Shown: positions 3,559-56,932 of the stretch, in pieces | Layout: each line of letters begins with the position of its first letter | Numbering within the stretch: the stretch's first letter is position 1 | Made by a program: the position numbers and the translations under genes | Notes under the pieces: generated by a model | The model's database searches: none | What the model was told of the DNA's origin: nothing | Seen by the model: only the letters and a program-made list of their open reading frames with translations | Assembly (NCBI GenBank): GCA_964535515.1 | Contig: CAZHTA010000002.1 | Coordinates: 684-64,683, forward strand | DNA: 64,000 bases | Direction of reading: 5' to 3' | Source: an uncultured Gammaproteobacteria bacterium | Lineage (GTDB): Bacteria; Patescibacteriota; Patescibacteriia; Magasanikbacterales; GWA2-37-8

Positions 3559-6500
3559 ATGCCTATTCGAAGAATAATAAGGGGGAAGATAAAAGCAGAA
3601 AAACCAACTAAACCGGTAGAAGAAAAAGAGGAAAAAATTGAGATTGAACCAGAAATAATAAAAGCTACAATAACCCATAAAGGAACTAAGGAAAGTAAAA
3701 CTTCCTCAGAATACAGCGCTAAGAATATTACGGTTTTGGAAGGATTAGAAGCGGTACGTCGCCGACCTGGCATGTATATTGGTTCTACTGGTCCAGCTGG
3801 TTTACACCATCTTATCTGGGAAGTTGTCGACAACTCAGTCGACGAAGCTATGGCTGGCCACTGCGATCGTATTGAAGTAACTCTGCTCCCCGACCACATG
3901 GTAGAAGTACGTGATAATGGTCGTGGTATCCCAGTTGATATCCACCCTCAACAAGGCGTAAGTGCCTTGGAAGTTATTTTAACCAAACTACATGCTGGTG
4001 GTAAATTTGGTAATGGTGGCTATAAAATTTCTGGCGGTTTGCACGGTGTAGGTGTTACAGTTGTAAACGCTCTCTCTTCTTACTTAAAAGCTGAGGTTCA
4101 CCTTGGTGGAAAAATTTGGGAACAAGAATACACAGCTGGTAATCCACAAAAAAAAGTTAGGGCCGTTGGTACTTGTAAAGATACAGGTACCACTATTACC
4201 TTCCGAGCCGATGACACTATTTTTGAAACAACTAATTATGAATGGAAGGCGATCGTTGACCACCTACGTCAATATGCTTACCTTTCTAAAGGATTACATT
4301 TCATAATCTCCGATAAACGTAGTCCAGAAGAAAAAGCCGTTGATAAAACAGCAATCAGTTTCCCTAATCCAACTTACCAGTTTTACTTTGAAGGTGGTGT
4401 GGCTTCTTATGTTCGTTATATCAATCACAACAAAGAAGCTAAAGGAGAAAACATCTTTTACGCTGACAAAGAAGCGGACGACGTTAATGTCGAAATTGCT
4501 TTACAGTACAGCGAGGATTACACTGAATCACTTTTTGCTTTTACCAACAATATTCATAATCCTGATGGCGGTACCCACGTTCAAGGTTTCCGCACTGCTC
4601 TAACACGCGTCTTAAACAGTTATGCTCGTAACAAAAATATTTTAAAAGAGAAAGACGCCAACCTAACCGGCGAAGACGTACGCGAGGGTTTGAATGCTGT
4701 CATTTCCATTAAAATACGCGAACCACAATTTGAAGGACAAACAAAATCCAAATTAGGCAATACTGAAGCTAAAACAGCAGTTGAAACAATCATGGGTGAA
4801 GAATTTACCATCTTCTTGGAAGAACATCCTAAGGATGCCGAGGCCATTATTGGTAAATGTTTACTCGCCAGCCGTGCTCGCAATGCTGCCAAAATCGCGC
4901 GTGATGCCATTTTGCGCAAAGGTGCTCTAGAAGGATTTACTCTACCAGGCAAACTAGCGGACTGCTCTTCGCGTGATGCTGAAATTTCTGAATTGTACAT
5001 TGTTGAGGGCGACAGTGCGGGCGGATGTTTTGATGGAAATACCAAAGTTGCGTTGACTGATGGACGTAGCTTGTCATTTATAAAATTAGCAGAAGAATGG
5101 GAACAAGGTAAAACAAACTACTGTTACACAATAAAAAACAATGGCGAAATTGGTATTGAAAAAATATTACACCCACGCATTACCAAGAAAAACGCCACCG
5201 TAATTAAAATCACACTAGATAATGATGAAGAATTGATTTGTACCCCAGATCACAAATTTATGTTACGTGACGGTAGTTACGTCCAAGCTAAAGATCTAAA
5301 ATCCGACATTAGCTTGATGCCTCTCTACCGAAAAACTTCTGTTATAGGAGGTCGTATTACAATAGATGGATACGAGATGGTTCTAAACACAAATAGTAGA
5401 TGGAAATTTACTCATCTTCTTGCTGACGAATATAATTTAACACAAAATGTATATCCTCAAATTGAGAACGGACATAAACATCACAAAGATTTTAATAAAC
5501 TGAACAACAACCCAGATAACATAATCCGTTTGTCTAAAGAAGACCATTTACAAATTCACCGCGAACAGGCGCACAAAACTCTCCATCGTCCAGATTCTAT
5601 TGCTAAATGTAACGAAATTAAACGTTCGGCAATTTATAGAAAAAAAATCTCCGACACGATGAAAAATCTTGGTCCGATGTTAAGTGCCCGAGCCAAAAAA
5701 CAATGGCAAAACGAGGAATATAAAAAATTCATGACGCATAAATTTTTGGAATTTTATAATAACAACGCTGAATACCGAGAAAAAAATAACGAGCTGTTAA
5801 ATAAAATACAAAAAGAGTATTGGGGCAACCTAAACAACCGGACAACACAAGCTGAGCGTGTTAAGGAATCTTTTAAGAACCACCCCGACAGAAAAAAATG
5901 GTTAAGTGAATTAGCAAAAAACCAGTGGAGCAGTGCCGAACTCTTAAATTGGCGCGCACAACAAACCACCAAACAATGGACACCTGAATTTCGCACTAAA
6001 CGTCAACAAGCTTACGCCAAAACATATCTTCAACACAGCTTGTCCTTCGCTAAAACACTAGCCGAACGTGGATTAAATTTCATTTCCACTTACAACCAAG
6101 AAAGAAGCGCTTTGCCAAAACGTAATAATAACATTGTAAAATTTGAAACATTATTAAATCGTTTTTTTGCTGGCGACCAAAATCGATTAGTCGAAGCAGT
6201 GAACAACTTCAACCATAAAATTGTCAGAATAGAAAAAGTCACCAAAAAAGTTGACGTATACGATATTGAGGTGCCACACACCCACAACTTCGCTCTAGCA
6301 AGTGGCATTTTCGTACACAACAGCGCCAAACAAGGCCGCAACCGCGAATTTCAAGCCATTCTCCCACTACGCGGTAAAGTATTAAACGTAGAACGCGCAC
6401 GTCTGGACAAGATCTTAGCTAACAACGAATTGAAATCTCTAATTATTGCAATCGGCACTAATATTGGTGAACAATTCGATATTACTAAGTTACGTTATCA

Positions 6501-7053
6501 TCGTATCATTATCATGACCGATGCGGACGTTGATGGTGCCCACATCCGTACTTTACTTTTAACTTTCTTTTACCGCCATTTCCCTGAACTAGTAAACAAT
6601 GGTCATATATATATTGCCCAACCACCACTTTACAGTGTTAAAACTGGTAAAGAAATAAAATATGCTTACAATGATGAAGAAAAAGAATTGCTCCTAGCCG
6701 AATTAAGTAAAAACAAATCTGCTAAGGCTGAAGCAAAACAGAAAAAAGAAGAAGCTGAGGAAGAAGTACCAGCTGAAGAAAACGGTGAAGAAGGCGGAGA
6801 TGCCCAAGCTGAGTCAATTTTAGTGGGTGGAGTAAAAGTTAACATCCAACGTTACAAAGGTTTGGGAGAAATGAACCCGGAACAACTCTGGGAAACTACG
6901 ATGAATCCAGAAAAACGTTTGATGAAACAAGTAACAGTAGAAGACGCCGGACTAGCTAATGAAACCTTTGAAATTTTAATGGGCGAAGATGTCGAGCAAA
7001 GAAAAAAATTCATCCAGACCAACGCCAAATCCGTAAGTAATTTGGATGTATAA
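3559..7053 (+). CDS. gyrB: DNA gyrase subunit B, interrupted in-frame by an intein (extein plus intein = 1164 aa); about 45-aa N-terminal extension
   Basis: GHKL ATPase motifs (LEGLEAVRRRPGMYIGS, GLHHLIWEVVDNSVDE), the TOPRIM motif EGDSAGG split from SAKQGRNREFQAILPLRGKVLNVE, and the C-terminal tail. Confidence 0.9.
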   Translation: MPIRRIIRGKIKAEKPTKPVEEKEEKIEIEPEIIKATITHKGTKESKTSSEYSAKNITVLEGLEAVRRRPGMYIGSTGPAGLHHLIWEVVDNSVDEAMAGHCDRIEVTLLPDHMVEVRDNGRGIPVDIHPQQGVSALEVILTKLHAGGKFGNGGYKISGGLHGVGVTVVNALSSYLKAEVHLGGKIWEQEYTAGNPQKKVRAVGTCKDTGTTITFRADDTIFETTNYEWKAIVDHLRQYAYLSKGLHFIISDKRSPEEKAVDKTAISFPNPTYQFYFEGGVASYVRYINHNKEAKGENIFYADKEADDVNVEIALQYSEDYTESLFAFTNNIHNPDGGTHVQGFRTALTRVLNSYARNKNILKEKDANLTGEDVREGLNAVISIKIREPQFEGQTKSKLGNTEAKTAVETIMGEEFTIFLEEHPKDAEAIIGKCLLASRARNAAKIARDAILRKGALEGFTLPGKLADCSSRDAEISELYIVEGDSAGGCFDGNTKVALTDGRSLSFIKLAEEWEQGKTNYCYTIKNNGEIGIEKILHPRITKKNATVIKITLDNDEELICTPDHKFMLRDGSYVQAKDLKSDISLMPLYRKTSVIGGRITIDGYEMVLNTNSRWKFTHLLADEYNLTQNVYPQIENGHKHHKDFNKLNNNPDNIIRLSKEDHLQIHREQAHKTLHRPDSIAKCNEIKRSAIYRKKISDTMKNLGPMLSARAKKQWQNEEYKKFMTHKFLEFYNNNAEYREKNNELLNKIQKEYWGNLNNRTTQAERVKESFKNHPDRKKWLSELAKNQWSSAELLNWRAQQTTKQWTPEFRTKRQQAYAKTYLQHSLSFAKTLAERGLNFISTYNQERSALPKRNNNIVKFETLLNRFFAGDQNRLVEAVNNFNHKIVRIEKVTKKVDVYDIEVPHTHNFALASGIFVHNSAKQGRNREFQAILPLRGKVLNVERARLDKILANNELKSLIIAIGTNIGEQFDITKLRYHRIIIMTDADVDGAHIRTLLLTFFYRHFPELVNNGHIYIAQPPLYSVKTGKEIKYAYNDEEKELLLAELSKNKSAKAEAKQKKEEAEEEVPAEENGEEGGDAQAESILVGGVKVNIQRYKGLGEMNPEQLWETTMNPEKRLMKQVTVEDAGLANETFEILMGEDVEQRKKFIQTNAKSVSNLDV
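5026..6321 (+). other. intein (432 aa) inside gyrB with HNH-type homing endonuclease domain
   Basis: Starts with Cys directly after GDSAGG. Block B TPDH. Ends VHN followed by extein Ser (SAKQGR). Internal NGHKHHKDFNKLNNNPDNIIRLSKEDHLQIH resembles an HNH motif. Frame verified (5026-3559 and 6322-3559 both divisible by 3). Confidence 0.8.
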
Positions 7054-7090: not shown

Positions 7091-7122
7091 GATGGTTTTT
7101 TATTTCCTTCTATTTTGAACTA
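7091..7122 (+). terminator. intrinsic terminator after gyrB (AACCACC...GATGGTT then T6)
   Basis: Hairpin with one G-U pair followed by a T-run. Confidence 0.5.
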
Positions 7123-7180
7123 ATTCAAAACAAAAGGGACTTGGCGGTCCAGCTGTGCCCGTAAAGGGAGCTGGACCGCC
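7122..7180 (-). terminator. intrinsic terminator for minus-strand GC-rich operon (12-bp GGCGGTCCAGCT/AGCTGGACCGCC stem then T-run on minus strand)
   Basis: Perfect 12-bp inverted repeat at 7143-7180; the minus strand continues as aagtcccttttgtttt. Confidence 0.55.
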
Positions 7181-7264
7181 GAGATAGGAATGACGAGACG
7201 AACGACTCACCCCGATCATCCGACAGCCGCGAAGGCCGAGCAGACGAATCGAGGGGTGTGACGT

Positions 7265-7750
7265 TTAGTTTAGATCGGGGAGATCGAAAAGGCCGAGGAG
7301 CACACCGAATCCGTAAGCGACCCCATTGGTGACAATGGCGGCGCATAACCCCCACCAGATGGCCTCGAGGAAGTATCCGCACGAGAACCATGCGGAGTAG
7401 TCCTTCCCGTCTCCAGCCGCGAGCGCCCAGCGCCACCCATAGTTAGCGGCGAGGAGATGGAGCAACACCGCAACCACAGTGACCACCACCGCCAACGGCC
7501 GGCGGGCGTCGCTGTCCAAGTTGCTGCGGAGGACCAGTGCCCAAACAACCAGGGACACCACTGGCCCGATTGCGAAGGCCATGACCACGCCGAACCAATC
7601 GACTCCATCCAGCTTCGCGCTGCACCAGACGGAATCATCGTACCCGCCACCACCGGCCAACGCAAGGCCGGGGAGAAGGAACATTACCGTGAAGGCCACG
7701 GCGACCATCGACACCAGCAAGCAGGTTTTCCAGGACCTGTTCAAGTTCAC
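7265..7750 (-). CDS. small integral membrane protein (about 4 TM), GC-rich, holin-like by size and topology
   Basis: ORF track. Hydrophobic segments. ATGA start/stop overlap with the upstream CHAP gene (translational coupling). High-GC codon usage. Confidence 0.55.
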   Translation of the reverse strand: MNLNRSWKTCLLVSMVAVAFTVMFLLPGLALAGGGGYDDSVWCSAKLDGVDWFGVVMAFAIGPVVSLVVWALVLRSNLDSDARRPLAVVVTVVAVLLHLLAANYGWRWALAAGDGKDYSAWFSCGYFLEAIWWGLCAAIVTNGVAYGFGVLLGLFDLPDLN

Positions 7751-9159
7751 CTCCTAGACCAGCCCACGCAGGGCAAGTCTTCGATTGTTCCGCGAACCCA
7801 CCAGAACCCTCCGACGAATTCCTGGAGGGTGGCGCACTCGTACCAGCGTGAGGTATTTTGCTGAACGACACACACGGCATCGTCCTTCACCTCAACGACA
7901 ATCGCGACATGCCCAGGGGCACGATGGCTGTTAGCCGCCACACTCTCCCGACCGTCACGATCAAAGATCAGGATATCATTCACCGCCGGCTTCACCGGCG
8001 AACCGTTCAGGAGCACCGACAAGCCCTTAGCGTTTCCGCTATAGAAATAGCTGTCAGCGTGACCGGTGCGCTCCATGTTCCTATGACCCAGGACGGTGGC
8101 GTAGAACCGATTGACCAGCTCCACACACTGCCACCGTTGGCCATAGCCAGACCGCTCCGATTCACCTTCACCGCGGGGGTGCTGATGAATCTCCGCCCCA
8201 CGATAAAGGCCAACGACCGCTCCCTGCTCCGCTTTGATACCAGGCGGAACAAGGACCACCACACCATTCTTGTCTCCGATACGTGGGAACTGCTCCCCAC
8301 GACCAAAGATAAACGACATGACGGTATCGGTGTAATACCCGAACCGACCGTTGCCGGCCAATCCGAGCCACCCACTTGCCTCCCCGAAGGTCGGCCGATA
8401 GTGAGTGAACACCGACGCGGCACTCGACTTTTCCTCATTGTCCATCTGGATGCCCGAGAGCTCCCAGATGTAAACGAGATCGAAGCCAAGCAACGATATA
8501 TCGGACAATTTTTCCACCCGGAACGGATCCGTGCCGAAGCGCTTACCGTTCAAGTGAAAAAAGTGATAACCCCACCACTCGCCCTGATACTCGAAAGCCA
8601 GAACGAGGTGTGTGTTGATTCCAGCCTTTGCCGCAAGAACTTGCGGGTCCATGCGACTCTGCTGAAAGTGATAGCCGGCCACGTAAAGCCGACTCGAGGA
8701 CAACACCTTGGAGAGATCACTGTCGAACGGGACCAATTCCTTAATCTTGTCCTCAGTTGAGGTTGAGAAATCCTTGGTCCGATCAAAAACTTTGCGGAGG
8801 TCGTCCGCATTGTCCTGACCGAACCGCCAAGCCACCGTCACCTCGAGCTTTTGTCTGCCCAAAATGAAGTTAGCAGCCTGGATCACGGCCGAAGCGCAAC
8901 GCTCGTTGTCCCACATCGACTGCGGGATAAACGCCGGCACCGGGCCGTTACCCGGACGGTCCACAAGACTATCCAGGAGTGATCGCACTTCTACCGGTGC
9001 GCGCGGGCTAAGGGGGAACTTACTCCCCCATTCTTCTTCCACATGGTGACGAGCCACGCAGAAGATCGTTACGAGAACCATCACGACCGAAGTCGCAAAA
9101 ATCCCCGTCACAAAAATCGCGTTGCGCACTCGTCTGCGCTCGGTCCGGCTCAGTCTCAC
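7747..9159 (-). CDS. membrane-anchored protein with C-terminal CHAP-domain peptidoglycan amidase/peptidase, GC-rich (GTG start)
   Basis: N-terminal TM (IFVTGIFATSVVMVLVTIFCV). C-terminal QCVELVNRFY...GHVAIVVEV matches the CHAP catalytic Cys/His pattern. GAGGTGA SD before GTG. About 60% GC by eye. Confidence 0.6.
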   Translation of the reverse strand: MRLSRTERRRVRNAIFVTGIFATSVVMVLVTIFCVARHHVEEEWGSKFPLSPRAPVEVRSLLDSLVDRPGNGPVPAFIPQSMWDNERCASAVIQAANFILGRQKLEVTVAWRFGQDNADDLRKVFDRTKDFSTSTEDKIKELVPFDSDLSKVLSSSRLYVAGYHFQQSRMDPQVLAAKAGINTHLVLAFEYQGEWWGYHFFHLNGKRFGTDPFRVEKLSDISLLGFDLVYIWELSGIQMDNEEKSSAASVFTHYRPTFGEASGWLGLAGNGRFGYYTDTVMSFIFGRGEQFPRIGDKNGVVVLVPPGIKAEQGAVVGLYRGAEIHQHPRGEGESERSGYGQRWQCVELVNRFYATVLGHRNMERTGHADSYFYSGNAKGLSVLLNGSPVKPAVNDILIFDRDGRESVAANSHRAPGHVAIVVEVKDDAVCVVQQNTSRWYECATLQEFVGGFWWVRGTIEDLPCVGWSRR

Positions 9160-9370
9160 CTGTCACCTCGTGATTGTGTGGGTTGTTGACGTTTAGCAAA
9201 TATCTCCACAGCGATTGGCATCGCTGTCATTCCTATCAATTGTCAAAGATCTGTTTCCAAACAGCTAAAAGCCTCAGCTTCCGGCTATTCAAAGAAACAG
9301 ATAATAATAGCATAAATTAGCGAAAAAGTCAATATCCTGTCGTCTGTTATTACTATCCCCATTGAATATG

Positions 9371-14047: not shown

Positions 14048-14120
14048 GCGCCTGTAGCTCAGGGGTTAGAGCACTGCCCTTATAAGGCAGGGGTCGATGG
14101 TTCGAAGCCATCCAGGCGCA
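14048..14120 (+). tRNA. tRNA-Ile with anticodon UAU (reads AUA)
   Basis: Cloverleaf folded by hand: acceptor GCGCCUG/CAGGCGC, D-arm GCUC..GAGC, anticodon stem CUGCC/GGCAG with loop cuUAUaa, T-arm GAUGG-UUCGAAG-CCAUC. No encoded CCA. Confidence 0.7.
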
Positions 14121-14128
14121 CTAAACAT

Positions 14129-27048: not shown

Positions 27049-27162
27049 CTTGTTCCAAGACCTCCACAACAGTAAAAATTTTACTGCTCTGGAGGTTCGG
27101 TCTTGAAACAGGTGTAGTGCCTGAGAAAGGCGGCGTGCGAATGCACAACCGAACCGACGGGA

Positions 27163-27504
27163 CTAGCCCTCAGAGAAGACCACATCATACTCATCCACGT
27201 CACGATCAGGGATGTCGAAGAAGGCGATGGTCTCCGAGAACAGCCGCTTCAAGGTGAAACGGTCGCTGGACAAGACCGGCTCCCAGTTCAACAGCGAAAA
27301 AGTGGTCGTCCTCCTGAACCGATAATCGCTGTCATGATGCCAACGCAGAGTCAGGCCCGCCGGATCAAACCCTGACCCACCCTCCACTCGACCGCTGCTT
27401 ATCGTCCCATCGGAGCGATACCCAACGATCCTGGCACGAAGCGCGAGATCATCTTCGTGCTCTTCGCAAAACCTGCGCACTTCCCCCCAAGTGGACATCT
27501 CCAT
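27163..27504 (-). CDS. hypothetical protein (113 aa), GC-rich island C
   Basis: ORF track. GC-rich codons unlike neighbours. No TM and no recognisable domain. Confidence 0.45.
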   Translation of the reverse strand: MEMSTWGEVRRFCEEHEDDLALRARIVGYRSDGTISSGRVEGGSGFDPAGLTLRWHHDSDYRFRRTTTFSLLNWEPVLSSDRFTLKRLFSETIAFFDIPDRDVDEYDVVFSEG

Positions 27505-27641
27505 GCCCCCTTCTACGGTTGCATTAACAATTCCACCCTAACAAAAAAATGGGGGGGGGGTGTCAACTACCCATACCACCCTCTTTGCTCTTATTCCTTT
27601 TCTTCTGTATAATATTGATAGTTAAGTTAATTTAAAAAAAT

Positions 27642-28676: not shown

Positions 28677-28774
28677 ACAGAAAAACACAAAAAATCCCCA
28701 TAAAATATGGGGATTTTTGATATCCAACCTTGACAAGCACTAAATTTTATGATACTCTAAATTTGTTCATTATT

Positions 28775-29115
28775 GGTAATCGCCCCAACCTAGTTGGGAG
28801 AGGAAAGTCCGAACATCTTCCAATGCAAATTGGAAAAAAGGATAGTGGGTAACACCCACCCCCCGATCCGCAAGGTACCGGGGCGGGAAAGCGGCACAGA
28901 GACTATACTATCCCGGCTTACCCGGGAGAAAGGTGAAAAGCGCATGGGGGTTTTGGTTCTAGATCAAAGCTACTATGCCCCATCCACAGCAATGTGGAAT
29001 GGTGCCAAGCCCTATCTGATGCAAGAGCAGCCTTGTGACTGGAATACCTAGTCGCTTGGAAAAGTTCGCTCGCAATGATTCTGATGGTAACATCAGGACT
29101 AGATAAATGATTACC
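28775..29115 (+). ncRNA. rnpB: RNase P RNA (bacterial type)
   Basis: P4 signature GAGGAAAGUCCGAACA near the 5' end and CCCGGCUUACCCGGG further on. P1 formed by GGUAAUC (28775-28781) with GAUUACC (29109-29115). Promoter-like TTGACA at about 28731. The overlapping 85-aa ORF is spurious. Confidence 0.7.
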
Positions 29116-29230
29116 TCCTGTTAAAAAGACTTAGGCCAAAATATACTGAAAAATCCAATACGCGGAAAGTATCAGTGTAATATGGTTCGGTCTTACAACA
29201 GAAGACAAAATTCGGCTTATAATAATGAAC

Positions 29231-29263
29231 AACAAAAATCCCGATTTATTCGGGATTTTTGTT
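29231..29263. terminator. bidirectional intrinsic terminator (AAAAATCCCGA-ttta-TTCGGGATTTTTG)
   Basis: Near-copy of the rplS/uvrA terminator motif; overlaps the stop codon of the minus-strand ORF 29246-29557. Confidence 0.5.
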
Positions 29264-37205: not shown

Positions 37206-37230
37206 TATTATATCCTAAAAAAGAGAAAAA

Positions 37231-37315
37231 AACAACCATAAACAAAAACACCATCCGCAAAAACCTCCTCGCTATATCTACAAATATTTGTAAACATAGC
37301 GGGAAGCGGATGGTG
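37231..37315 (-). terminator. intrinsic terminator for GC-rich island D gene (CACCAUCCGC...GCGGAUGGUG 10-bp stem, then T-run on minus strand)
   Basis: Inverted repeat 37249-37258 with 37306-37315; the minus strand continues tttttgtttatgg. Confidence 0.5.
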
Positions 37316-37342
37316 TCTTGTTGTCTCCTCTCCCCGGGCGCT

Positions 37343-37921
37343 TCATGAAATTAGCGCCTCCTCGATGGCGGCCAAGAAACGGGAGTGCTCGGTCCACAAA
37401 GGGCCGTTGTCGTAGGTTTGTCCTTCTTTTGATACACGACCGAGTGTGTGGTAGTAGCCGCGTTCTTCGAACAGAGAAGCCACGAATTCGATCTCGTCAT
37501 CAGACCAAGCTGAGCCGAGTTCGATGACATCGACTCCACGTTGGACTTCGGGATAGTCAGCCCCGAACGCGAGCAGCTCGCGGAAGGTCGCGGGACGAAG
37601 GTGTCTCCGCCTGAAGCGCGCGAGAATTTCTTCGGTGCGCGCTTTTCTCTTCATGTCAACGAGCACCAAGTCTGTGGTGCTCGCGACACCCCTTTCTTCA
37701 GCACTGTCGAAGCGGGCCATATTCACTCTGATATCGCAGCTGCTGTAGTCCCCAGCGCGTACCAACTCCGCGGTAGGCTTGCGGGGATCGTTGTCGATCC
37801 GGTAGATCCCCTTTTCTTCGACGAGGCGTCGCCTTAGAAATCGGCGAACCTCATCCGGGCACTTCGTTAGTAGTGCCTGGTCTTTCTCCGAGAACAGCTG
37901 AAAGTACGCTTCGGGTTCCAT
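37343..37921 (-). CDS. hypothetical protein (192 aa), GC-rich island D
   Basis: ORF track. High-GC codons. No TM and no recognisable domain. Confidence 0.45.
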   Translation of the reverse strand: MEPEAYFQLFSEKDQALLTKCPDEVRRFLRRRLVEEKGIYRIDNDPRKPTAELVRAGDYSSCDIRVNMARFDSAEERGVASTTDLVLVDMKRKARTEEILARFRRRHLRPATFRELLAFGADYPEVQRGVDVIELGSAWSDDEIEFVASLFEERGYYHTLGRVSKEGQTYDNGPLWTEHSRFLAAIEEALIS

Positions 37922-38131
37922 TTGGCCGTTCCTTTCGTTCTAGGGGTTAACTTGGCCATCTTGGCCGAAGGGAAGTTGGGATTTTCGGTCCCAGCCTTCT
38001 TTTGTGAATATTTAATTAAAATTAAACATACCAAAAGAAAGCAGGGACACATTTTTAAAGAACAACGTAAAATATCACGTTTCATTGATTTTGTCAAGAA
38101 TACCTGTTAAAGTATGGTGGTATTTATACCT

Positions 38132-51559: not shown

Positions 51560-53125
51560 ATGGTAAAAAAAATAAGACTAAAAATTCTCCTAATTGGATT
51601 AACTGCCGTCTTATTGTTTTTGCCACAAACCACTCTTTTCGCCGCTACTAAAAGTCACATTGGCGATCCTTGTATAAACGATATCACTAATGCTGATTGC
51701 GAAGTTGATGGTGCGGATTTAGATTGTGAAAAAAGTAATAAAAAAGACGCTACAAAATATTGCACTGCAAACAGTGACTCCGACTGCATTGCTGAATACG
51801 GTACCCCCGCCAAAGGAAGTTGGGTGCGCAGTAGTGGAACAGATTATACTTATAATCTTGCCTATTGTTATAACTCCGCCACTAAAGAAGTAAAAACCGC
51901 CGCTGGAATAAACACCGACGTCAGCCCAATAGGCAACTTAGTGGGCGCTGTATTTGATTCCCCCGCTACTCAGGCTGCATTATTAGAAGAAGTAAAATCT
52001 TTTAAACCAGGATTAGAAATTCGTTTGCCCGGTTTAACATTTAGTGACCTATCTAACACTATCGACGAGGAAGGATACCTTCATATCCCTTGGATTGGCG
52101 AGTTTATCAAAGCCCTATACAATTTTGGCTTAGTAATTGTTAGTATCGTGGCAGTGGTGATGATCATAATGCAAGGAGCAAAGATTGTTGTTTCGGGTGG
52201 AGAATCAAAGGTAGAGGGATACAAAAAGATTGGACAAATAGCAATTGGTTTGGTTATTGCTTGGGGATCGTATGCCATACTCTATACTATCAATCCAGCG
52301 TTGGTTGAATTTGAGAGCTTGAAAGTTCGCTATATCCAACCAGACAAATTAGAACAATATAATGAATATGTTAACCCATCCGATGCTAGCCCGATTATAA
52401 CTGGCGGAGCATCCACTTTTGGCGCTAATGGTATTCCTGATTTTAAACAATGCGACTCACGTTGGAAAGATTTACCTTACGATGGTGTATACAAAGGGAA
52501 AAAACTAGGATGTTTTAGACAAGTAAAAAACAAAAAAAACCAATATGAAGGCTCGATCTGTACCAGTGGTTGTGGCGTCACTTCTTTAGCTGATGTATTG
52601 GTATATTATGGCTACAGTAATATTACCCCAGTAGACACAGCCCGATATGCCGTAGAAATTGGCGCACGGTCTGGTTGTAATGGCTCAATCGGATCATTGC
52701 TTTGCAATAAAATCGCTACTAAGTGGCCTGACCTCAAATGCAACAACATCAATCCCCAAAAAGAAATAAGCAAAATAGTTTCGCTGCTGCGAGAAAAAAA
52801 ACCCGTAGTATTTTCCTGCCACGATTGTCACGGCTTCACCAAAACCGAACAAGACATCACCTTTGAGGCACACTACCTGGTATTAACCGGAGTAGACGAT
52901 AGTGGTAACTGGTTTTCAGTAAATGATCCAGGAAGGCAAAGTGGAATGGTAAGAATATCCGCTAAGGAATTCGCTGAAGGAAGAGTGGCAACTACTTTCG
53001 CAGTAGAAAAAAAAGACGGCAGCACTGCAAATACTACTAATGGTGAATGTGTTACAATAAGTGCAACATTTAGCGCCACCCAAGCTGACTGCTTAGCACA
53101 AGACGGCACTTGGCAACCACAATAA
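51560..53125 (+). CDS. secreted Cys-rich protein: signal peptide, Cys-rich N-domain, two-TM VirB2/TrbC-like module, C-terminal C39-like cysteine peptidase domain
   Basis: QCDSRWKD...GCGVTSLADVLVYYG...HYLVLTGVDD resembles the C39/papain-like peptidase Cys and His. Central module near-identical to the downstream paralogue. Confidence 0.6.
   Translation: MVKKIRLKILLIGLTAVLLFLPQTTLFAATKSHIGDPCINDITNADCEVDGADLDCEKSNKKDATKYCTANSDSDCIAEYGTPAKGSWVRSSGTDYTYNLAYCYNSATKEVKTAAGINTDVSPIGNLVGAVFDSPATQAALLEEVKSFKPGLEIRLPGLTFSDLSNTIDEEGYLHIPWIGEFIKALYNFGLVIVSIVAVVMIIMQGAKIVVSGGESKVEGYKKIGQIAIGLVIAWGSYAILYTINPALVEFESLKVRYIQPDKLEQYNEYVNPSDASPIITGGASTFGANGIPDFKQCDSRWKDLPYDGVYKGKKLGCFRQVKNKKNQYEGSICTSGCGVTSLADVLVYYGYSNITPVDTARYAVEIGARSGCNGSIGSLLCNKIATKWPDLKCNNINPQKEISKIVSLLREKKPVVFSCHDCHGFTKTEQDITFEAHYLVLTGVDDSGNWFSVNDPGRQSGMVRISAKEFAEGRVATTFAVEKKDGSTANTTNGECVTISATFSATQADCLAQDGTWQPQ
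51985..52327 (+). repeat. about 340-bp near-identical (about 90% by eye) direct repeat, copy 1 of 2, encoding the two-TM module
   Basis: Direct alignment with 53707-54047 shows long identical runs (for example ttacaattttggcttagtaattgttag, caaaggtagagggatacaaaaagattggacaaat). Confidence 0.8.
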
Positions 53126-53130
53126 TTATT

Positions 53131-54747
53131 ATGAAAAAAATATTAATAACGACCTTCATAATATTAACAACCATAATCCCACAGGCTACACTAGCCAGTG
53201 TTAGTTGTGGTGCAGTCTACTGCCAATCTGACCAGATTTGCAACAACGATCCAGCTAGCCCTGCTTGCTTATCTAAAACAAACCAGGATTGCACTCAGAG
53301 CAGCGACTGTGGATCAGGTGTTTGTACTATTCCAGCTGGTGAATCAAAAAACAAATGTTTTGTCCAATTATCAACCGGCCTACCCATCGGTTCTGTTTGC
53401 AATGTTAATTCTGAGTGTCTATCAAATGATTGCGAAGGTAGTCAGAAAAAAAATGGGGCAGGAAATGCAACTAGCTATTGCGATTGCAATGACGCTGGCG
53501 ACTGTCAACAAAAATGGGGGGCACCCGCTAGTGGAGAATGGGAATGTGTTGATGGCGCGTCAGTCACTTTTGATTTAGACTATTGTGTAAACGAAGCAAA
53601 CAAAAGGATAGAGCCCACCCTACCAGAATACAAAAATGATGCCAGCATGTTTGGTAAACTGTCTGATGCTCTTTTTGACACAAAGGCTTTACAAGCCAAC
53701 CTGCTCCAAGAAGTTAAATCATTTAAACCTGGATTAGAAATCCGCTTACCCGGTTTAACATTTAGTGATTTAGCCAAAACCGTTGATTCTGAAGGATATA
53801 TCCAAATTCCTTGGATTGGAGAATTCATCAGAGCATTATACAATTTTGGCTTAGTAATTGTTAGCATCGTGGCCGTGGTAATGATCATCATGCAGGGAGC
53901 GAAGATTGTTGTATCGGGCGGAGAATCAAAGGTAGAGGGATACAAAAAGATTGGACAAATTGCAGTTGGTTTGGTTATTGCTTGGGGATCATATGCTATA
54001 CTCTACACTATTAACCCAGCATTAGTTGAATTTAAAAGTTTAAAAATAAAATACATTGAAACTATCCCCTTGGATGTTTTTGATAAAGGAGAAGCCCCGA
54101 CCCCATCTCACCCTAAAGCACTAAATGCTACCAACTTTGATGCTTTGTTCCAATCATACGGCAACTGCATCTCCGTTGATTGGCATGTTATCAAAGCCAT
54201 GGCATATATAGAATCATCACTAGATTCTAGTGTAGTTAATAGTTTAGGATTCGCTGGGCTTTTCCAAACAAAAACAAACTTCTGCCAAAGCTCTTTAAAA
54301 AGATACGGCTTAGATAACAAATGTACAGAACTAACAAATCCCGAGCTCAGCACTGCTGTCGGAACAAGCATGATACGCGACTCTATCAACCAAATTAAAA
54401 AGAAATGCCCTAATATTGATGGTGACTCATTAGCATATTTTATCTACATCGGACACCAAAGCGGACAAGGAACACTTTCCAATGTTATTGCCCAAACTTG
54501 TACATACACCAACGCATATACTTATATCCATAGTTCTTGGGAAAAACAAAGTGGCGGTAAATATGCTGACTCTACCGGCAAAAAAAGAACAGCTGTACAT
54601 ATTGCTACCGAAGCAGATAAAGGTGCAAAAAAAATGATTGGCTTGGTACAAGGAATGGGTGTAACAAATGCTTTAACTACTGTCGATAAAAACAAATGTC
54701 CACTCGACACCGCTAGCCTTAGATTTATCCTTACTGTAACACCGTAA
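53131..54747 (+). CDS. secreted Cys-rich protein: signal peptide, Cys-rich N-domain, two-TM VirB2/TrbC-like module, C-terminal lytic transglycosylase (SLT) domain
   Basis: AMAYIESSLDSSVVNSLGFAGLFQ matches the SLT catalytic-Glu and GLxQ motifs. Start placed at MKKILITT. Confidence 0.6.
   Translation: MKKILITTFIILTTIIPQATLASVSCGAVYCQSDQICNNDPASPACLSKTNQDCTQSSDCGSGVCTIPAGESKNKCFVQLSTGLPIGSVCNVNSECLSNDCEGSQKKNGAGNATSYCDCNDAGDCQQKWGAPASGEWECVDGASVTFDLDYCVNEANKRIEPTLPEYKNDASMFGKLSDALFDTKALQANLLQEVKSFKPGLEIRLPGLTFSDLAKTVDSEGYIQIPWIGEFIRALYNFGLVIVSIVAVVMIIMQGAKIVVSGGESKVEGYKKIGQIAVGLVIAWGSYAILYTINPALVEFKSLKIKYIETIPLDVFDKGEAPTPSHPKALNATNFDALFQSYGNCISVDWHVIKAMAYIESSLDSSVVNSLGFAGLFQTKTNFCQSSLKRYGLDNKCTELTNPELSTAVGTSMIRDSINQIKKKCPNIDGDSLAYFIYIGHQSGQGTLSNVIAQTCTYTNAYTYIHSSWEKQSGGKYADSTGKKRTAVHIATEADKGAKKMIGLVQGMGVTNALTTVDKNKCPLDTASLRFILTVTP
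53707..54047 (+). repeat. copy 2 of 2 of the two-TM-module repeat
   Basis: As for copy 1; divergence is far lower than in the flanking N- and C-domains. Confidence 0.8.
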
Positions 54748-54767: not shown

Positions 54768-56108
54768 ATGAATAAAAATACCATCATCTTCTCTTGTTCT
54801 CATTGCGGCGCCCAATTCCAAAAATGGATTGGACGATGTTTGGAGTGTGGCCAGTGGGGAACAATTGAAAAAGCACAACTAACTGGCGATAAGTCTGATA
54901 AAAAAGAAGACGTTGAATACGCACCAGTTAAAACAGTAAGTTTAAAAAATGTTGAAGGGAAAAACACTTTAAGGATAAAAACCAACACCGAAGAATTGGA
55001 CCGAGTTTTAGGCGGCGGAATTGTCCCGGGCAGTTTAATTCTTCTAGGCGGCGAACCAGGCATTGGCAAATCTACTTTAGCTCTTCAAATCGCCACCCTC
55101 TTGTCCCCTACCTTGTACTTTTCCGGTGAAGAATCAATTGAACAAATAAAATTACGCGCTGACCGATTAAAAATTACCGGCGCTGGCTTGGAAGTTGGCA
55201 ACACCACATCAGTAGAAAATATTATCGCCACCATAAAAACAAAAAAGCCAAAACTTGCGATTATTGATTCAATCCAAACTGCTCGTTCCAATGAAGCTGA
55301 CGGCGAAAGCGGCAGCATTACCCAGGTTCGTGCCGCTACAGTTAAGTTTATGGAAACCGCCAAAGCAACTGGCACAACAATTGTCCTAATCGGACAAGTA
55401 ACTAAAGAAGGTGCGGTAGCTGGACCAAAAACACTAGAACACCTAGTCGATGTAGTGATGTATCTTGAAGGTGACAAATACCACCAATATCGAATCTTGC
55501 GAGCAGCTAAAAATCGCTTTGGTTCTACTGACGAAATCGGCGTATTCTCAATGACTGAAAAAGGGTTAGAAGAAGTTAAAAATCCTTCAGCAGCATTCCT
55601 AGCTGGCCGTGGTGAACCAGTACCAGGTACCGCCATCACTTGTCTTATGGAAGGCAGCCGACCAATTCTGGTAGAAATTCAAGCGCTAGTAACAAAAACA
55701 AATTTTGGCTTCCCCCAACGCCGTGCCTCAGGATTTGATTTAAACCGTTTGCAAGTTTTAATTGGTGTCTTATCCAAACGCGCTAAATTACCACTTGAAT
55801 CATATGATGTCTTTTTAAATGTTGTCGGCGGTGTAAATGCTGAGGAACCAGCCGCTGATCTCGCTGTCATCCTCGCTCTCGCCTCAGCTTTAAAAGAAAA
55901 AACATTACCCGCTGATTTAGCAGCATTCGGTGAAGTCGGACTAGGCGGCGAAGTACGACCAGTATCACAACAAAAAAGACGACTAGAAGAAATTAAAAAA
56001 ATGGGGTTAAAATTTGCCGTAACGCCAGTAACAAACGAAAAAATTAGTGACATGAAAATTGCACCAATAAAAAACGTCCAAGAAGTAGTAGAGAAAATAG
56101 TGAAGTAA
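54768..56108 (+). CDS. radA: DNA repair protein RadA (Sms)
   Basis: N-terminal C4 zinc finger (CSHCGAQFQKWIGRCLECGQWG), RecA-like P-loop GEPGIGKST, KNRFG motif, Lon-like C-terminal domain. Confidence 0.9.
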   Translation: MNKNTIIFSCSHCGAQFQKWIGRCLECGQWGTIEKAQLTGDKSDKKEDVEYAPVKTVSLKNVEGKNTLRIKTNTEELDRVLGGGIVPGSLILLGGEPGIGKSTLALQIATLLSPTLYFSGEESIEQIKLRADRLKITGAGLEVGNTTSVENIIATIKTKKPKLAIIDSIQTARSNEADGESGSITQVRAATVKFMETAKATGTTIVLIGQVTKEGAVAGPKTLEHLVDVVMYLEGDKYHQYRILRAAKNRFGSTDEIGVFSMTEKGLEEVKNPSAAFLAGRGEPVPGTAITCLMEGSRPILVEIQALVTKTNFGFPQRRASGFDLNRLQVLIGVLSKRAKLPLESYDVFLNVVGGVNAEEPAADLAVILALASALKEKTLPADLAAFGEVGLGGEVRPVSQQKRRLEEIKKMGLKFAVTPVTNEKISDMKIAPIKNVQEVVEKIVK

Positions 56109-56126: not shown

Positions 56127-56163
56127 AAAAAAATCCACCTGCCAAATTAGGCAGGTGGTTTAA
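56127..56163. terminator. bidirectional intrinsic terminator (CCACCTGCC-aaatta-GGCAGGTGG) shared by radA(+) and the island E genes(-)
   Basis: A-run upstream gives a T7 run on the minus strand; TTTAATT on the plus strand. Confidence 0.55.
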
Positions 56164-56282
56164 TTCCAGGGAGGCCGACGACGGACACATCCAGTTCGTC
56201 GCGTACATGTACGCATTGAACCTTCAGCATCCGTCGCCGGCTATGAGGAGGGAGAACCGTAGAACCTAAGGCCAAAGACGCC

Positions 56283-56540
56283 TCAGGCAGTCTCGTCGGT
56301 CGGAGCGACGACAGCCTGAGCAGCGGCCTGCTGCTCAATCTCGTACTCGTACACCGCTCTGTGTACGACGCTGACCGGAATCAGCGCCAAGGGCGGTGTC
56401 TCATCATGACCCCGCTTCACGAGCGCGCACACGAAGTGTTGCTCACGAAACGTTCCTCCTATTTTGGGAGGCGGGCCCGGGCGCGTCACATCGACAGCCC
56501 ACTTGTCACCTTTCTTGGTCGTGAAGAACTTATCGCCCAT
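56283..56540 (-). CDS. small hypothetical protein (85 aa), GC-rich island E, downstream member of an overlapping pair
   Basis: ORF track. ATG with GAGG 6 nt upstream. Overlaps the upstream gene by 11 nt. N-terminus KKGDKWAVDV is faintly DUF2188-like. Confidence 0.45.
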   Translation of the reverse strand: MGDKFFTTKKGDKWAVDVTRPGPPPKIGGTFREQHFVCALVKRGHDETPPLALIPVSVVHRAVYEYEIEQQAAAQAVVAPTDETA

Positions 56541-56763
56541 CTCGAGCCTCTTTCGCGGCAGGTGGCACCGGAACCACCAAGTTCATGGCGTTCATGCGTC
56601 CGAAACGCGCCCCGTTTTTGGGGTTGAACACCAAGACCTCGACCGCCTGCTGACCCTCGACGAAGTCGACGTGTGCTGCTGCGACGAGGAGCTTCTGCTC
56701 CCGGTCGCTGCGCTTATACACAACGACCTTCCCGTCGAGTCGCGGATCTCTATTCTTCGCCAC
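56530..56763 (-). CDS. small hypothetical protein (about 77 aa, GTG start), GC-rich island E, upstream member of an overlapping pair
   Basis: Start moved to GTG at 56763, which has a strong GAGGAGG SD 5 nt upstream (the track Met at 56883 lies in AT-rich sequence). Candidate TTGACT-17-TACGAT promoter on the minus strand at about 56850-56880. Confidence 0.4.
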   Translation of the reverse strand: MAKNRDPRLDGKVVVYKRSDREQKLLVAAAHVDFVEGQQAVEVLVFNPKNGARFGRMNAMNLVVPVPPAAKEARDGR

Positions 56764-56932
56764 TTCTTCCTCCTCGGAAATCCAACCCAGCCAAAATGGC
56801 GGGAAAAGCGAGGCGTCGTGCCTCTCAGTTCCACATGGGTTAAAAACAGAAATAATCGTATCAAAAAACCAGCAAAAAGTCAATGCTTTGCCGGTTTTAA
56901 TGGAAAAAATATATTTTAAAATTTTTGTCTCA

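Follow-up and report, generated by a model that had tools for sequence, protein, structure and literature searches.

In the mRNAs of the type I toxins hok (hok/Sok of plasmid R1) and aapA (aapA/IsoA of Helicobacter pylori) the Shine-Dalgarno sequence (SD) is occluded by an anti-SD located far downstream, through a 5'-3' long-distance interaction; metastable hairpins operate locally while the mRNA is being transcribed, and trimming of its 3' end turns translation on (PMC6733600). Type II toxin-antitoxin (TA) operons, including the toxin-first higBA, hicAB and mqsRA, consist of two short, overlapping, coupled and co-transcribed genes, while integron cassettes and accessory hotspots between core genes show unrelated content within conserved flanks in close relatives. 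Features of all three are found in island E, a GC-rich locus of about 770 nt located between recG and radA in the 64,000-nt stretch of DNA analysed here and hereafter called the window (GenBank assembly GCA_964535515.1, contig CAZHTA010000002.1, positions 684 to 64,683; GTDB lineage Patescibacteriota, Magasanikbacterales). On balance we favour the explanation that island E is an orphan, exchangeable two-gene module which occupies a conserved slot of Magasanikbacteria, within a conserved RNA frame and with a predicted translational lock. Coordinates are those of the window throughout, the features of island E are given for the minus strand, and all of the evidence is computational.

Island E resembles the type I mRNAs in that its predicted anti-SD lies hundreds of nucleotides downstream of the SD, in the competing local structure of its 5' untranslated region (5'UTR) round the start codon, which is similar to the metastable hairpins of aapA3, and in having a compact, self-contained and highly structured transcript. 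It differs from them in its products, a pair of soluble proteins with 77 and 85 amino acids (aa) in place of one small hydrophobic peptide of usually fewer than 60 aa, and no sequence or Rfam similarity connects them. A consensus scan, which an unusual promoter could escape, indicated no plus-strand promoter-like site that faces the translation start of the island and could give rise to an antisense RNA. With type II operons the island shares, besides the arrangement of its genes, a partner gene that is exchangeable between relatives. With integrons it shares an imperfect hairpin at the 3' end of the cargo, comparable to attC, but integrons carry cassette arrays whereas island E is a single unit, and the exchange that we infer for it is one by homologous recombination. 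No integrase was noticed near the island, and no search aimed at integrases was made.

Island E has a GC content of about 60%, its flanks and the genome one of about 39%. The mere presence of open reading frames (ORFs) proves little here because ORFs are cheap in DNA of 60% GC, and at least four additional ones, distributed over both strands, overlap the island. The plus-strand ORFs 56361-56627 and 56464-56919 exist as well. Comparative data single out two minus-strand frames, designated ORF A and ORF B. ORF A (56530-56763) starts with GTG at 56763, ends with the stop codon 56532-56530 and encodes a basic protein of 77 aa (pI 10.1) that is predicted to be rich in beta-strands; its SD, GAGGAGG (56769-56775), is separated from the GTG by a 5-nt spacer and forms one arm of an inverted repeat, I4. 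ORF B (56283-56540) starts with ATG at 56540, is preceded by the SD AAAGAGG, overlaps ORF A by 11 nt and encodes a near-neutral protein of 85 aa (pI 6.3). Transmembrane segments are absent from both proteins (maximum 19-residue hydropathy below 1.0).

A promoter scan placed a sigma-70-type promoter, TTGACT-17-TACGAT with a TG extension, at 56855-56883. From the transcription start predicted on this basis, the 5'UTR would comprise about 85 nt (56764-56848) and contain a hairpin (56810-56824) and a closing stem, AACCC...GGGUU. At the other end a terminator scan identified an intrinsic terminator (56127-56158) in which a hairpin with a 9-bp stem (56135-56158) is followed by T7 (56133-56127) and which abuts the stop codon (56106-56108) of the convergent radA gene. 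The predicted minus-strand transcript is about 731 nt long. Since the island is bounded by this terminator and, on the recG side, by a terminator-like hairpin (56865-56898, a 13-bp stem and then a U-run, fold z-score -4.0), it is expected to be a separate transcription unit. An earlier note on this DNA, made from the letters alone, had already reported both ORFs with their starts, SDs, ends and overlap, the promoter, the GC-rich ORFs against AT-rich flanks and the two plus-strand ORFs, and all of these are borne out by the sequence. It had also described a bidirectional terminator shared with radA; the hairpin and its minus-strand T7 are present, but the terminator is mainly that of the island, as on the plus strand only TTTAATT follows the hairpin.

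The GC content at codon positions 1, 2 and 3 of ORF A is 0.72, 0.37 and 0.72, respectively. This high-low-high pattern is common to both ORFs, and their GC content at third positions (GC3) is about 0.7 compared with 0.32 in radA and recG. Alignment of ORF B with its homologue P0001 from the related locus L001 (Logan, SRR17737360) revealed 69% protein identity, with a dN/dS of 0.29 and a dS of 0.71 over 69 collinear codons without stops. The changes in codons 1-45 were mostly synonymous, and the frame of ORF B was the one that had no stops and the best synonymous to non-synonymous ratio. A second homologue, P0003 from locus L082, is 40% identical to ORF B, and 24 positions are invariant across the three sequences. 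Directly upstream of P0003 lies a C-terminus, ..TAMNLIVPRPKRQEA followed by the stop, whose homology with the end of ORF A is accompanied by synonymous differences, the motif ..AMNL[VI]VP.. being kept at the protein level. This conservation argues that ORF A is coding too and that the A-B pair recurs. The coupling of the two ORFs, by overlap or by a stop codon beside a start codon, is kept in L001, L082 and L003. We are confident that ORF A and ORF B form a real minus-strand operon.

The earlier note had also considered that the region might be a single frameshifted gene. ORF A and ORF B together amount to 162 aa, close to the 133-165 aa of the proteins found at the same place in L018, L028 and L030, and weak motif resemblances exist, so a gene split by a frameshift or a sequencing error was weighed. 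In L001, L082 and L003, however, two ORFs recur, the second having an SD and an ATG of its own. Furthermore, ORF A and ORF B could not be accepted as distant members of the family to which the 165-aa protein belongs ('LNGK..FGR..DR'), as the profile comparisons were not significant (hhalign probability below 1%; HMM E = 1.9 in a database of 385 sequences). A split gene is therefore disfavoured and seems extremely unlikely.

Homologues were sought with a word-indexed search and with a profile search that exhaustively covered 1.8 billion cluster representatives. The word-indexed search returned one homologue for ORF B (P0001) and none for ORF A, and the profile search with ORF B added P0003 only; P0002, a further candidate from the latter, was rejected as a spurious repeat protein. 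A profile built from the three ORF B sequences retrieved no further members, and the family consists of three members among about 15 billion proteins, all beside radA in one lineage. For ORF A, no full-length homologue or family was found in protein, phage or viral-contig searches, including a locus search in viral contigs. Neither tblastn of the pair against phage genomes nor an ORF B profile locus search in metagenomes yielded a match. One viral-contig match to the ORF B profile was discarded as it runs antisense to a 616-aa phage ORF, which by its sequence we take to be a ribonucleotide reductase.

Searches against Pfam, PHROGs, PADLOC and NCBIfam gave no match for ORF A, ORF B, their homologues or the cargo of the other loci, and sequence and profile searches of the PDB gave none for ORF A, ORF B, P0001, P0003 or A', the ORF that stands in place of ORF A in L001. 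The AlphaFold2 models were of low confidence, with a pLDDT of 56 for ORF B (two-sequence alignment) and 51 for ORF A (single sequence), and comparison of these weak models with the PDB using Foldseek produced nothing at E <= 0.001. ORF A and ORF B are orphan proteins that belong to no recognised family.

These searches bear directly on the interpretation advanced in the earlier note, namely a classical type II TA (or addiction/defence) pair composed of a toxin and a neutralising repressor partner, with the RNA frame as an incidental feature. In its favour are a pair of small genes that overlap, run in one direction and are served by a promoter and a terminator of their own, a basic first and a near-neutral second protein, a locus that turns over rapidly and the combination of ORF B with an unrelated ORF in L001, reminiscent of the partner shuffling of TA systems; the coupled genes with their promoter and terminator are real. 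The link to a known TA, addiction or defence family was not supported. Comparison of both peptides with Pfam and with TA and defence models came out empty, no significant fold match was obtained, and the island shows no homology to the toxin and antitoxin superfamilies (RelE/ParE, MazF/CcdB, PIN, HicA, Doc, HipA and GNAT; RHH, HTH, AbrB and Phd). The promoter lacks an operator palindrome, the only inverted repeat there being the stem of the recG terminator. Type II systems are mobile and patchily distributed, whereas the present locus has a fixed chromosomal position and an extremely narrow range, with the three ORF B family members confined to one locus of one lineage and none on phages; L002 and several other genomes hold a single ORF. 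Because the family searches were empty, no operator was seen and the distribution is restricted to a single locus, the TA interpretation is left with the gene architecture, and we consider it unlikely. Nor does it take account of the principal features described below, which are the conserved frame of RNA, the replaced cargo and the predicted 5'-3' lock on the SD.

The earlier note had further pointed to DUF2188 as a possible relative of ORF B. The likeness is just a short 'GD.WAV' near the N-terminus; no profile match supports it, Pfam giving none even at E <= 1 and NCBIfam none either. Since the island lacks the family homology, operator and mobility of type II systems and the hydrophobic peptide of type I systems, with which it agrees in the predicted fold-back, we describe the locus as an orphan exchangeable module. 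A conflict or TA-like function (addiction, defence or immunity) is a tentative suggestion, prompted by the fast turnover of the locus and the change of partner seen for ORF B and by nothing else.

The RadA relatives of the window belong to Candidatus Magasanikbacteria of the Patescibacteria, or candidate phyla radiation (CPR), the best match in that search being 92% identical, and many Magasanikbacteria carry a GC-rich patch directly downstream of radA. An exact look-up of the RadA of the window returned no record, and the genome of the window is absent from the collections searched. The comparison covered about 12 loci with a matching layout and four genomes with an alignable frame. At least 10 loci share one order: the recG stop codon, a promoter, an SD, one or more GC-rich ORFs, one or more hairpins with a terminator and then the convergent radA. 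The promoter is of the form TTGACT-17-TAnnnT, the 5'UTR measures 65-90 nt, the SD is of the GAGGAGG type and a pyrimidine-rich stretch precedes the hairpin or hairpins. The -35 box and the TAnnnT -10 box were found at the matching place in at least eight Magasanikbacteria loci.

The terminator-like hairpin of recG is conserved with compensatory changes in the window, L001, L002, L003 and L012, and its loop and 3' arm hold the -35 box of the island. With the -35 of the next promoter in the hairpin loop and the promoter spacer formed by the U-run of the hairpin, terminator and promoter overlap in a compact manner. The leader of the window is 94% identical to that of L001 and can be aligned to those of L002 and L003, the stem of its hairpin being kept through compensatory changes. 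The start codon of the first ORF, whether GTG, TTG or ATG, falls in one alignment column in four genomes.

Inside this frame the cargo differs from genome to genome. The trailer of L001 (identity of the flanking genes not available) is 92-97% identical to that of the window, while ORF A is replaced by the unrelated 82-aa ORF A', with which ORF A gave no BLASTP alignment, and ORF B shows about 75-80% nucleotide identity. L002 (RadA 92% and RecG 87% identical) has a homologous leader and trailer, about 71-79% identical, enclosing a single, unrelated, Arg-rich ORF of 73 aa. In L082 the trailer is homologous and RadA is 95.5% identical, against the 40% of ORF B. The interior sequence shows no conservation whatsoever in the comparison of the window, L001 and L002. 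The 'LNGK..FGR..DR' family (133-165 aa by one count and 101-152 aa by another) occupies the slot in L018, L026, L028, L030 and L044, and still other orphan ORFs do so in further genomes.

Because conservation of the non-coding flanks greatly exceeds that of the synonymous sites which they enclose, replacement of the cargo by recombination in the frame is the simplest explanation. We regard it as highly probable that the region between recG and radA is a variable slot with exchange of cargo, and we infer homologous recombination within the conserved frame as the mechanism. Three points weigh against this conclusion. Replacement could be mimicked by a cargo that diverges very fast in place while the frame stays under strong constraint; neither a recombinase nor any other direct sign of exchange was seen; and the frame can be aligned in four genomes only, of which the window and L001 are near-identical in it. 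Pattern scans with the leader and trailer DNA of genome, metagenome and viral collections gave no matches.

In L001 an IS30-type (HTH_38) transposase gene (L001 1-936) lies directly upstream of the slot hairpin, where the window has recG. We asked whether the slot could be a mobile module placed in a new context in L001, and this was rejected: homology begins exactly at the recG terminator/promoter hairpin, and for this reason insertion of an IS30-type element upstream is the simpler reading. Another insertion was observed in L003 (5350-5900), where an ORF for a GIY-YIG nuclease (5498-5794), flanked by repeated GGGATGGAGATCC...GGGATGACAG motifs, is located between the slot terminator and radA and looks like a small mobile element.

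Recently acquired foreign DNA, consisting of passenger genes from a GC-rich donor or mobile element with no special regulation or role, would account for the GC content of 60% against 39%, the GC3 of about 0.7 against 0.32, the several such GC-rich islands in the window and the transposase gene adjoining the locus in L001. The GC-rich cargo persists, however, across Magasanikbacteria in which RadA is only 60-70% identical, and an ORF B of 40% identity still resides at the same locus, which indicates that the GC-richness is long-lived and not a sign of fresh transfer. No homologue was found in any GC-rich organism, phage or viral contig searched, terminal repeats and target duplications round island E were not found, nor were repeats shared between the GC-rich islands of the window, and the promoter, 5'UTR and 3'UTR are conserved sequence of the host lineage. 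A recent foreign origin thus appears improbable. Candidate causes of the GC-richness are selection for RNA stability, biased gene conversion and an unseen donor pool.

At least four further GC-rich islands (55-62%) with orphan minus-strand ORFs were observed in the window, at 250-800, 1100-1400, 7100-9250, 27060-27600 and 37230-37960. Among their ORFs, 7747-9159 encodes a CHAP domain and 7265-7750, 27163-27504 and 37343-37921 have no Pfam match. Unusually good folding was noted for the segment 8650-9159 (z -6.6) and for the island at 37343-37921 (z -3.4). In the island at 27163-27504 the region where translation starts is also complementary to the 3'UTR, to a degree that ranks in the top 2.8% of windows. 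Ordinary genes show neither property.

The 3'UTR of island E contains an imperfect, conserved hairpin of 67 nt (56174-56241), of which the palindrome CGTACATGTACG reported in the earlier note at 56208-56219 is merely the tip. A CU-rich box, UUCUCCCUCCUC (56245-56256), complementary to the SD region, and a second CU-rich box, CCUCCCUGG (56167-56175), are located in the same 3'UTR, and the trailer folds with a z of -6.9. Comparison of the four genomes revealed that 24 pairs of the hairpin are kept, with four G-U/A-U switches and two fully compensatory pairs, and that the terminator stem has four compensatory pairs. A covariance model of the hairpin recovered diverged copies at the matching position in L003 and L008. 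As the G-U/A-U switches are neutral on minus-strand RNA only, they support minus-strand transcription, and the strand appears to be settled as well as sequence can settle it. An attC-like site was considered for this hairpin and rejected: its base lacks the RYYYAAC/GTTRRRY boxes, and the G-U/A-U switches are an RNA pattern.

The 3' arm of the hairpin (56174-56195, 22 nt, AACTGGATGTGTCCGTCGTCGG) is invariant in the four genomes, in which radA differs by 15-18% at the nucleotide level. Because this invariance exceeds what base pairing requires, the arm may be a recognition site. The terminator loop was seen to differ between two of the genomes: on the cargo strand it reads TAATTT in the window (56135-56158) and AAATTA, its reverse complement, in L001 (1758-1787), which could be due to two substitutions or to a small inversion of the loop.

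Given this degree of structure, the main product of the locus could alternatively be an RNA of about 730 nt, structured and either non-coding or dual-function, with the 5'-3' pairing as a closing helix and the ORFs secondary or incidental. In AT-rich genomes, a GC-rich patch between genes is a classic sign of a non-coding RNA. Compared with shuffled sequence, the cargo of the window, L001 and L003 is much more stably folded (z -4 to -5), a property not shared by host genes (z near 0), and the strongly folded trailer and the conserved ends round a variable interior, typical of some large RNAs, point in the same direction. The protein-level constraint on ORF B, seen in its dN/dS and conserved residues, argues against such an RNA, as do the SD and start codon conserved in register, the conserved coupled second start and the lack of interior conservation between the window, L001 and L002. 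The cargo of L018, L026, L028, L030 and L044 has a z near 0, like host genes. In Rfam 15 the island was unmatched at the gathering threshold, with nothing credible at E <= 5, and the equivalent patches of 14 relatives were empty as well. We therefore judge a structured RNA with incidental ORFs to be very unlikely.

Alignment of the SD region, GAGGAGGAAGAA (56775-56764), with the CU-rich box UUCUCCCUCCUC (56256-56245), just upstream of the 3' hairpin, indicated 92% complementarity over 12 nt, the two being joined as the 12-nt inverted repeat I4. In partition-function folds the probability of SD-box pairing was about 0.9-1.0 in the window, L001 and L002, whose transcripts of 731, 751 and 475 nt carry different cargo. 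Equivalent anti-SD boxes were identified in L001, L002 and L003; in L002 the SD reads GGGGGGAAGAAUGGGG, unlike that of the window, and the box, CCCGCAUUUUUCCGCCC, matches it. For 10 of 12 loci, the SD/start region had its most probable partner in the 3'UTR. Cognate SD/3'UTR pairs outperformed permuted pairs (P = 0.02), and when all 60-nt windows were ranked, the cognate 3'UTR came within the top 0.5-7% in 8 of 11 loci (Fisher P = 8e-6, the loci not being fully independent). Nine ordinary genes of the window showed no comparable complementarity between start region and 3'UTR.

Several observations count against a lock. The remaining three of the 11 loci (L018, L028 and L044) show no 3'UTR enrichment. 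SDs are generally purine-rich and 3'UTRs generally pyrimidine-rich, and non-cognate SD/3'UTR pairs also pair well, so that the specificity, at the P value of the permutation, is modest. When a few bases beyond the terminator are included, the SD of the window pairs with the U-rich tail instead. The 5'UTR has a local alternative structure round the start codon, and the transcript ends used for folding follow from a predicted transcription start. Weighing the folds against these points, we find the case for a functional 5'-3' lock on the SD evenly balanced.

Under the explanation that we favour, island E would be transcribed independently as a minus-strand operon of two orphan proteins, translation of ORF B being coupled to that of ORF A. 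The frame would consist, in order, of the recG terminator holding the promoter, the structured 5'UTR with a strong SD, the cargo, the CU-rich anti-SD box, the 67-nt hairpin and the terminator, and the GC-rich cargo would be swapped from genome to genome by homologous recombination inside it. Folding back of the full-length mRNA would bring the 3'UTR box onto the SD of the first ORF and thereby block this SD, and the lock might be released by 3' trimming or by another trigger. A more far-reaching proposal combines all of the elements, namely a CPR-specific class of exchangeable cassettes whose frame provides both homology arms and SD lock, type-I-style control of protein pairs, the 22-nt arm as a recognition site, a new kind of module in Patescibacteria for conflict, addiction or defence, and possibly an extension to the other GC-rich islands; taken jointly this is speculative and rather unlikely.

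Other features of the window were recorded. The gyrB gene (3559-7053) is interrupted by an intein, its Intein_splicing domain (residues 512-921) being placed after the gyrase B domain and before the Toprim domain. At 28764-29235 lies an RNase P RNA of bacterial class A, 472 nt long compared with the 367 positions of the model and with several large insertions. A tRNA-Ile with the anticodon UAU (tat) was predicted at 14048-14121. Upstream of radA, a 300-nt direct repeat, 86% identical, occurs at 51987-52286 and 53708-54007, 1.7 kb apart, and its second copy is located inside a Cys-rich ORF of 545 aa (53110-54747).

The genomes of CPR/Patescibacteria are small and rich in genes without assigned function, and to our knowledge almost nothing is known of post-transcriptional control and conflict systems in these bacteria; a literature search returned no paper that links Magasanikbacteria or Patescibacteria to loci of this kind. 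Island E offers a compact test case of about 770 nt in which a covarying RNA frame, swapped cargo and a predicted lock on the ribosome-binding site come together. If the lock is not real, the locus is still a lineage-restricted orphan operon, which should not be annotated as TA or DUF2188. Should the lock be real, protein pairs of an unrelated and uncultivated phylum would share a regulatory principle known from the type I toxins of Proteobacteria, and the conserved frame would also be a helpful marker with which to catalogue, in metagenomes, accessory genes that evolve fast.

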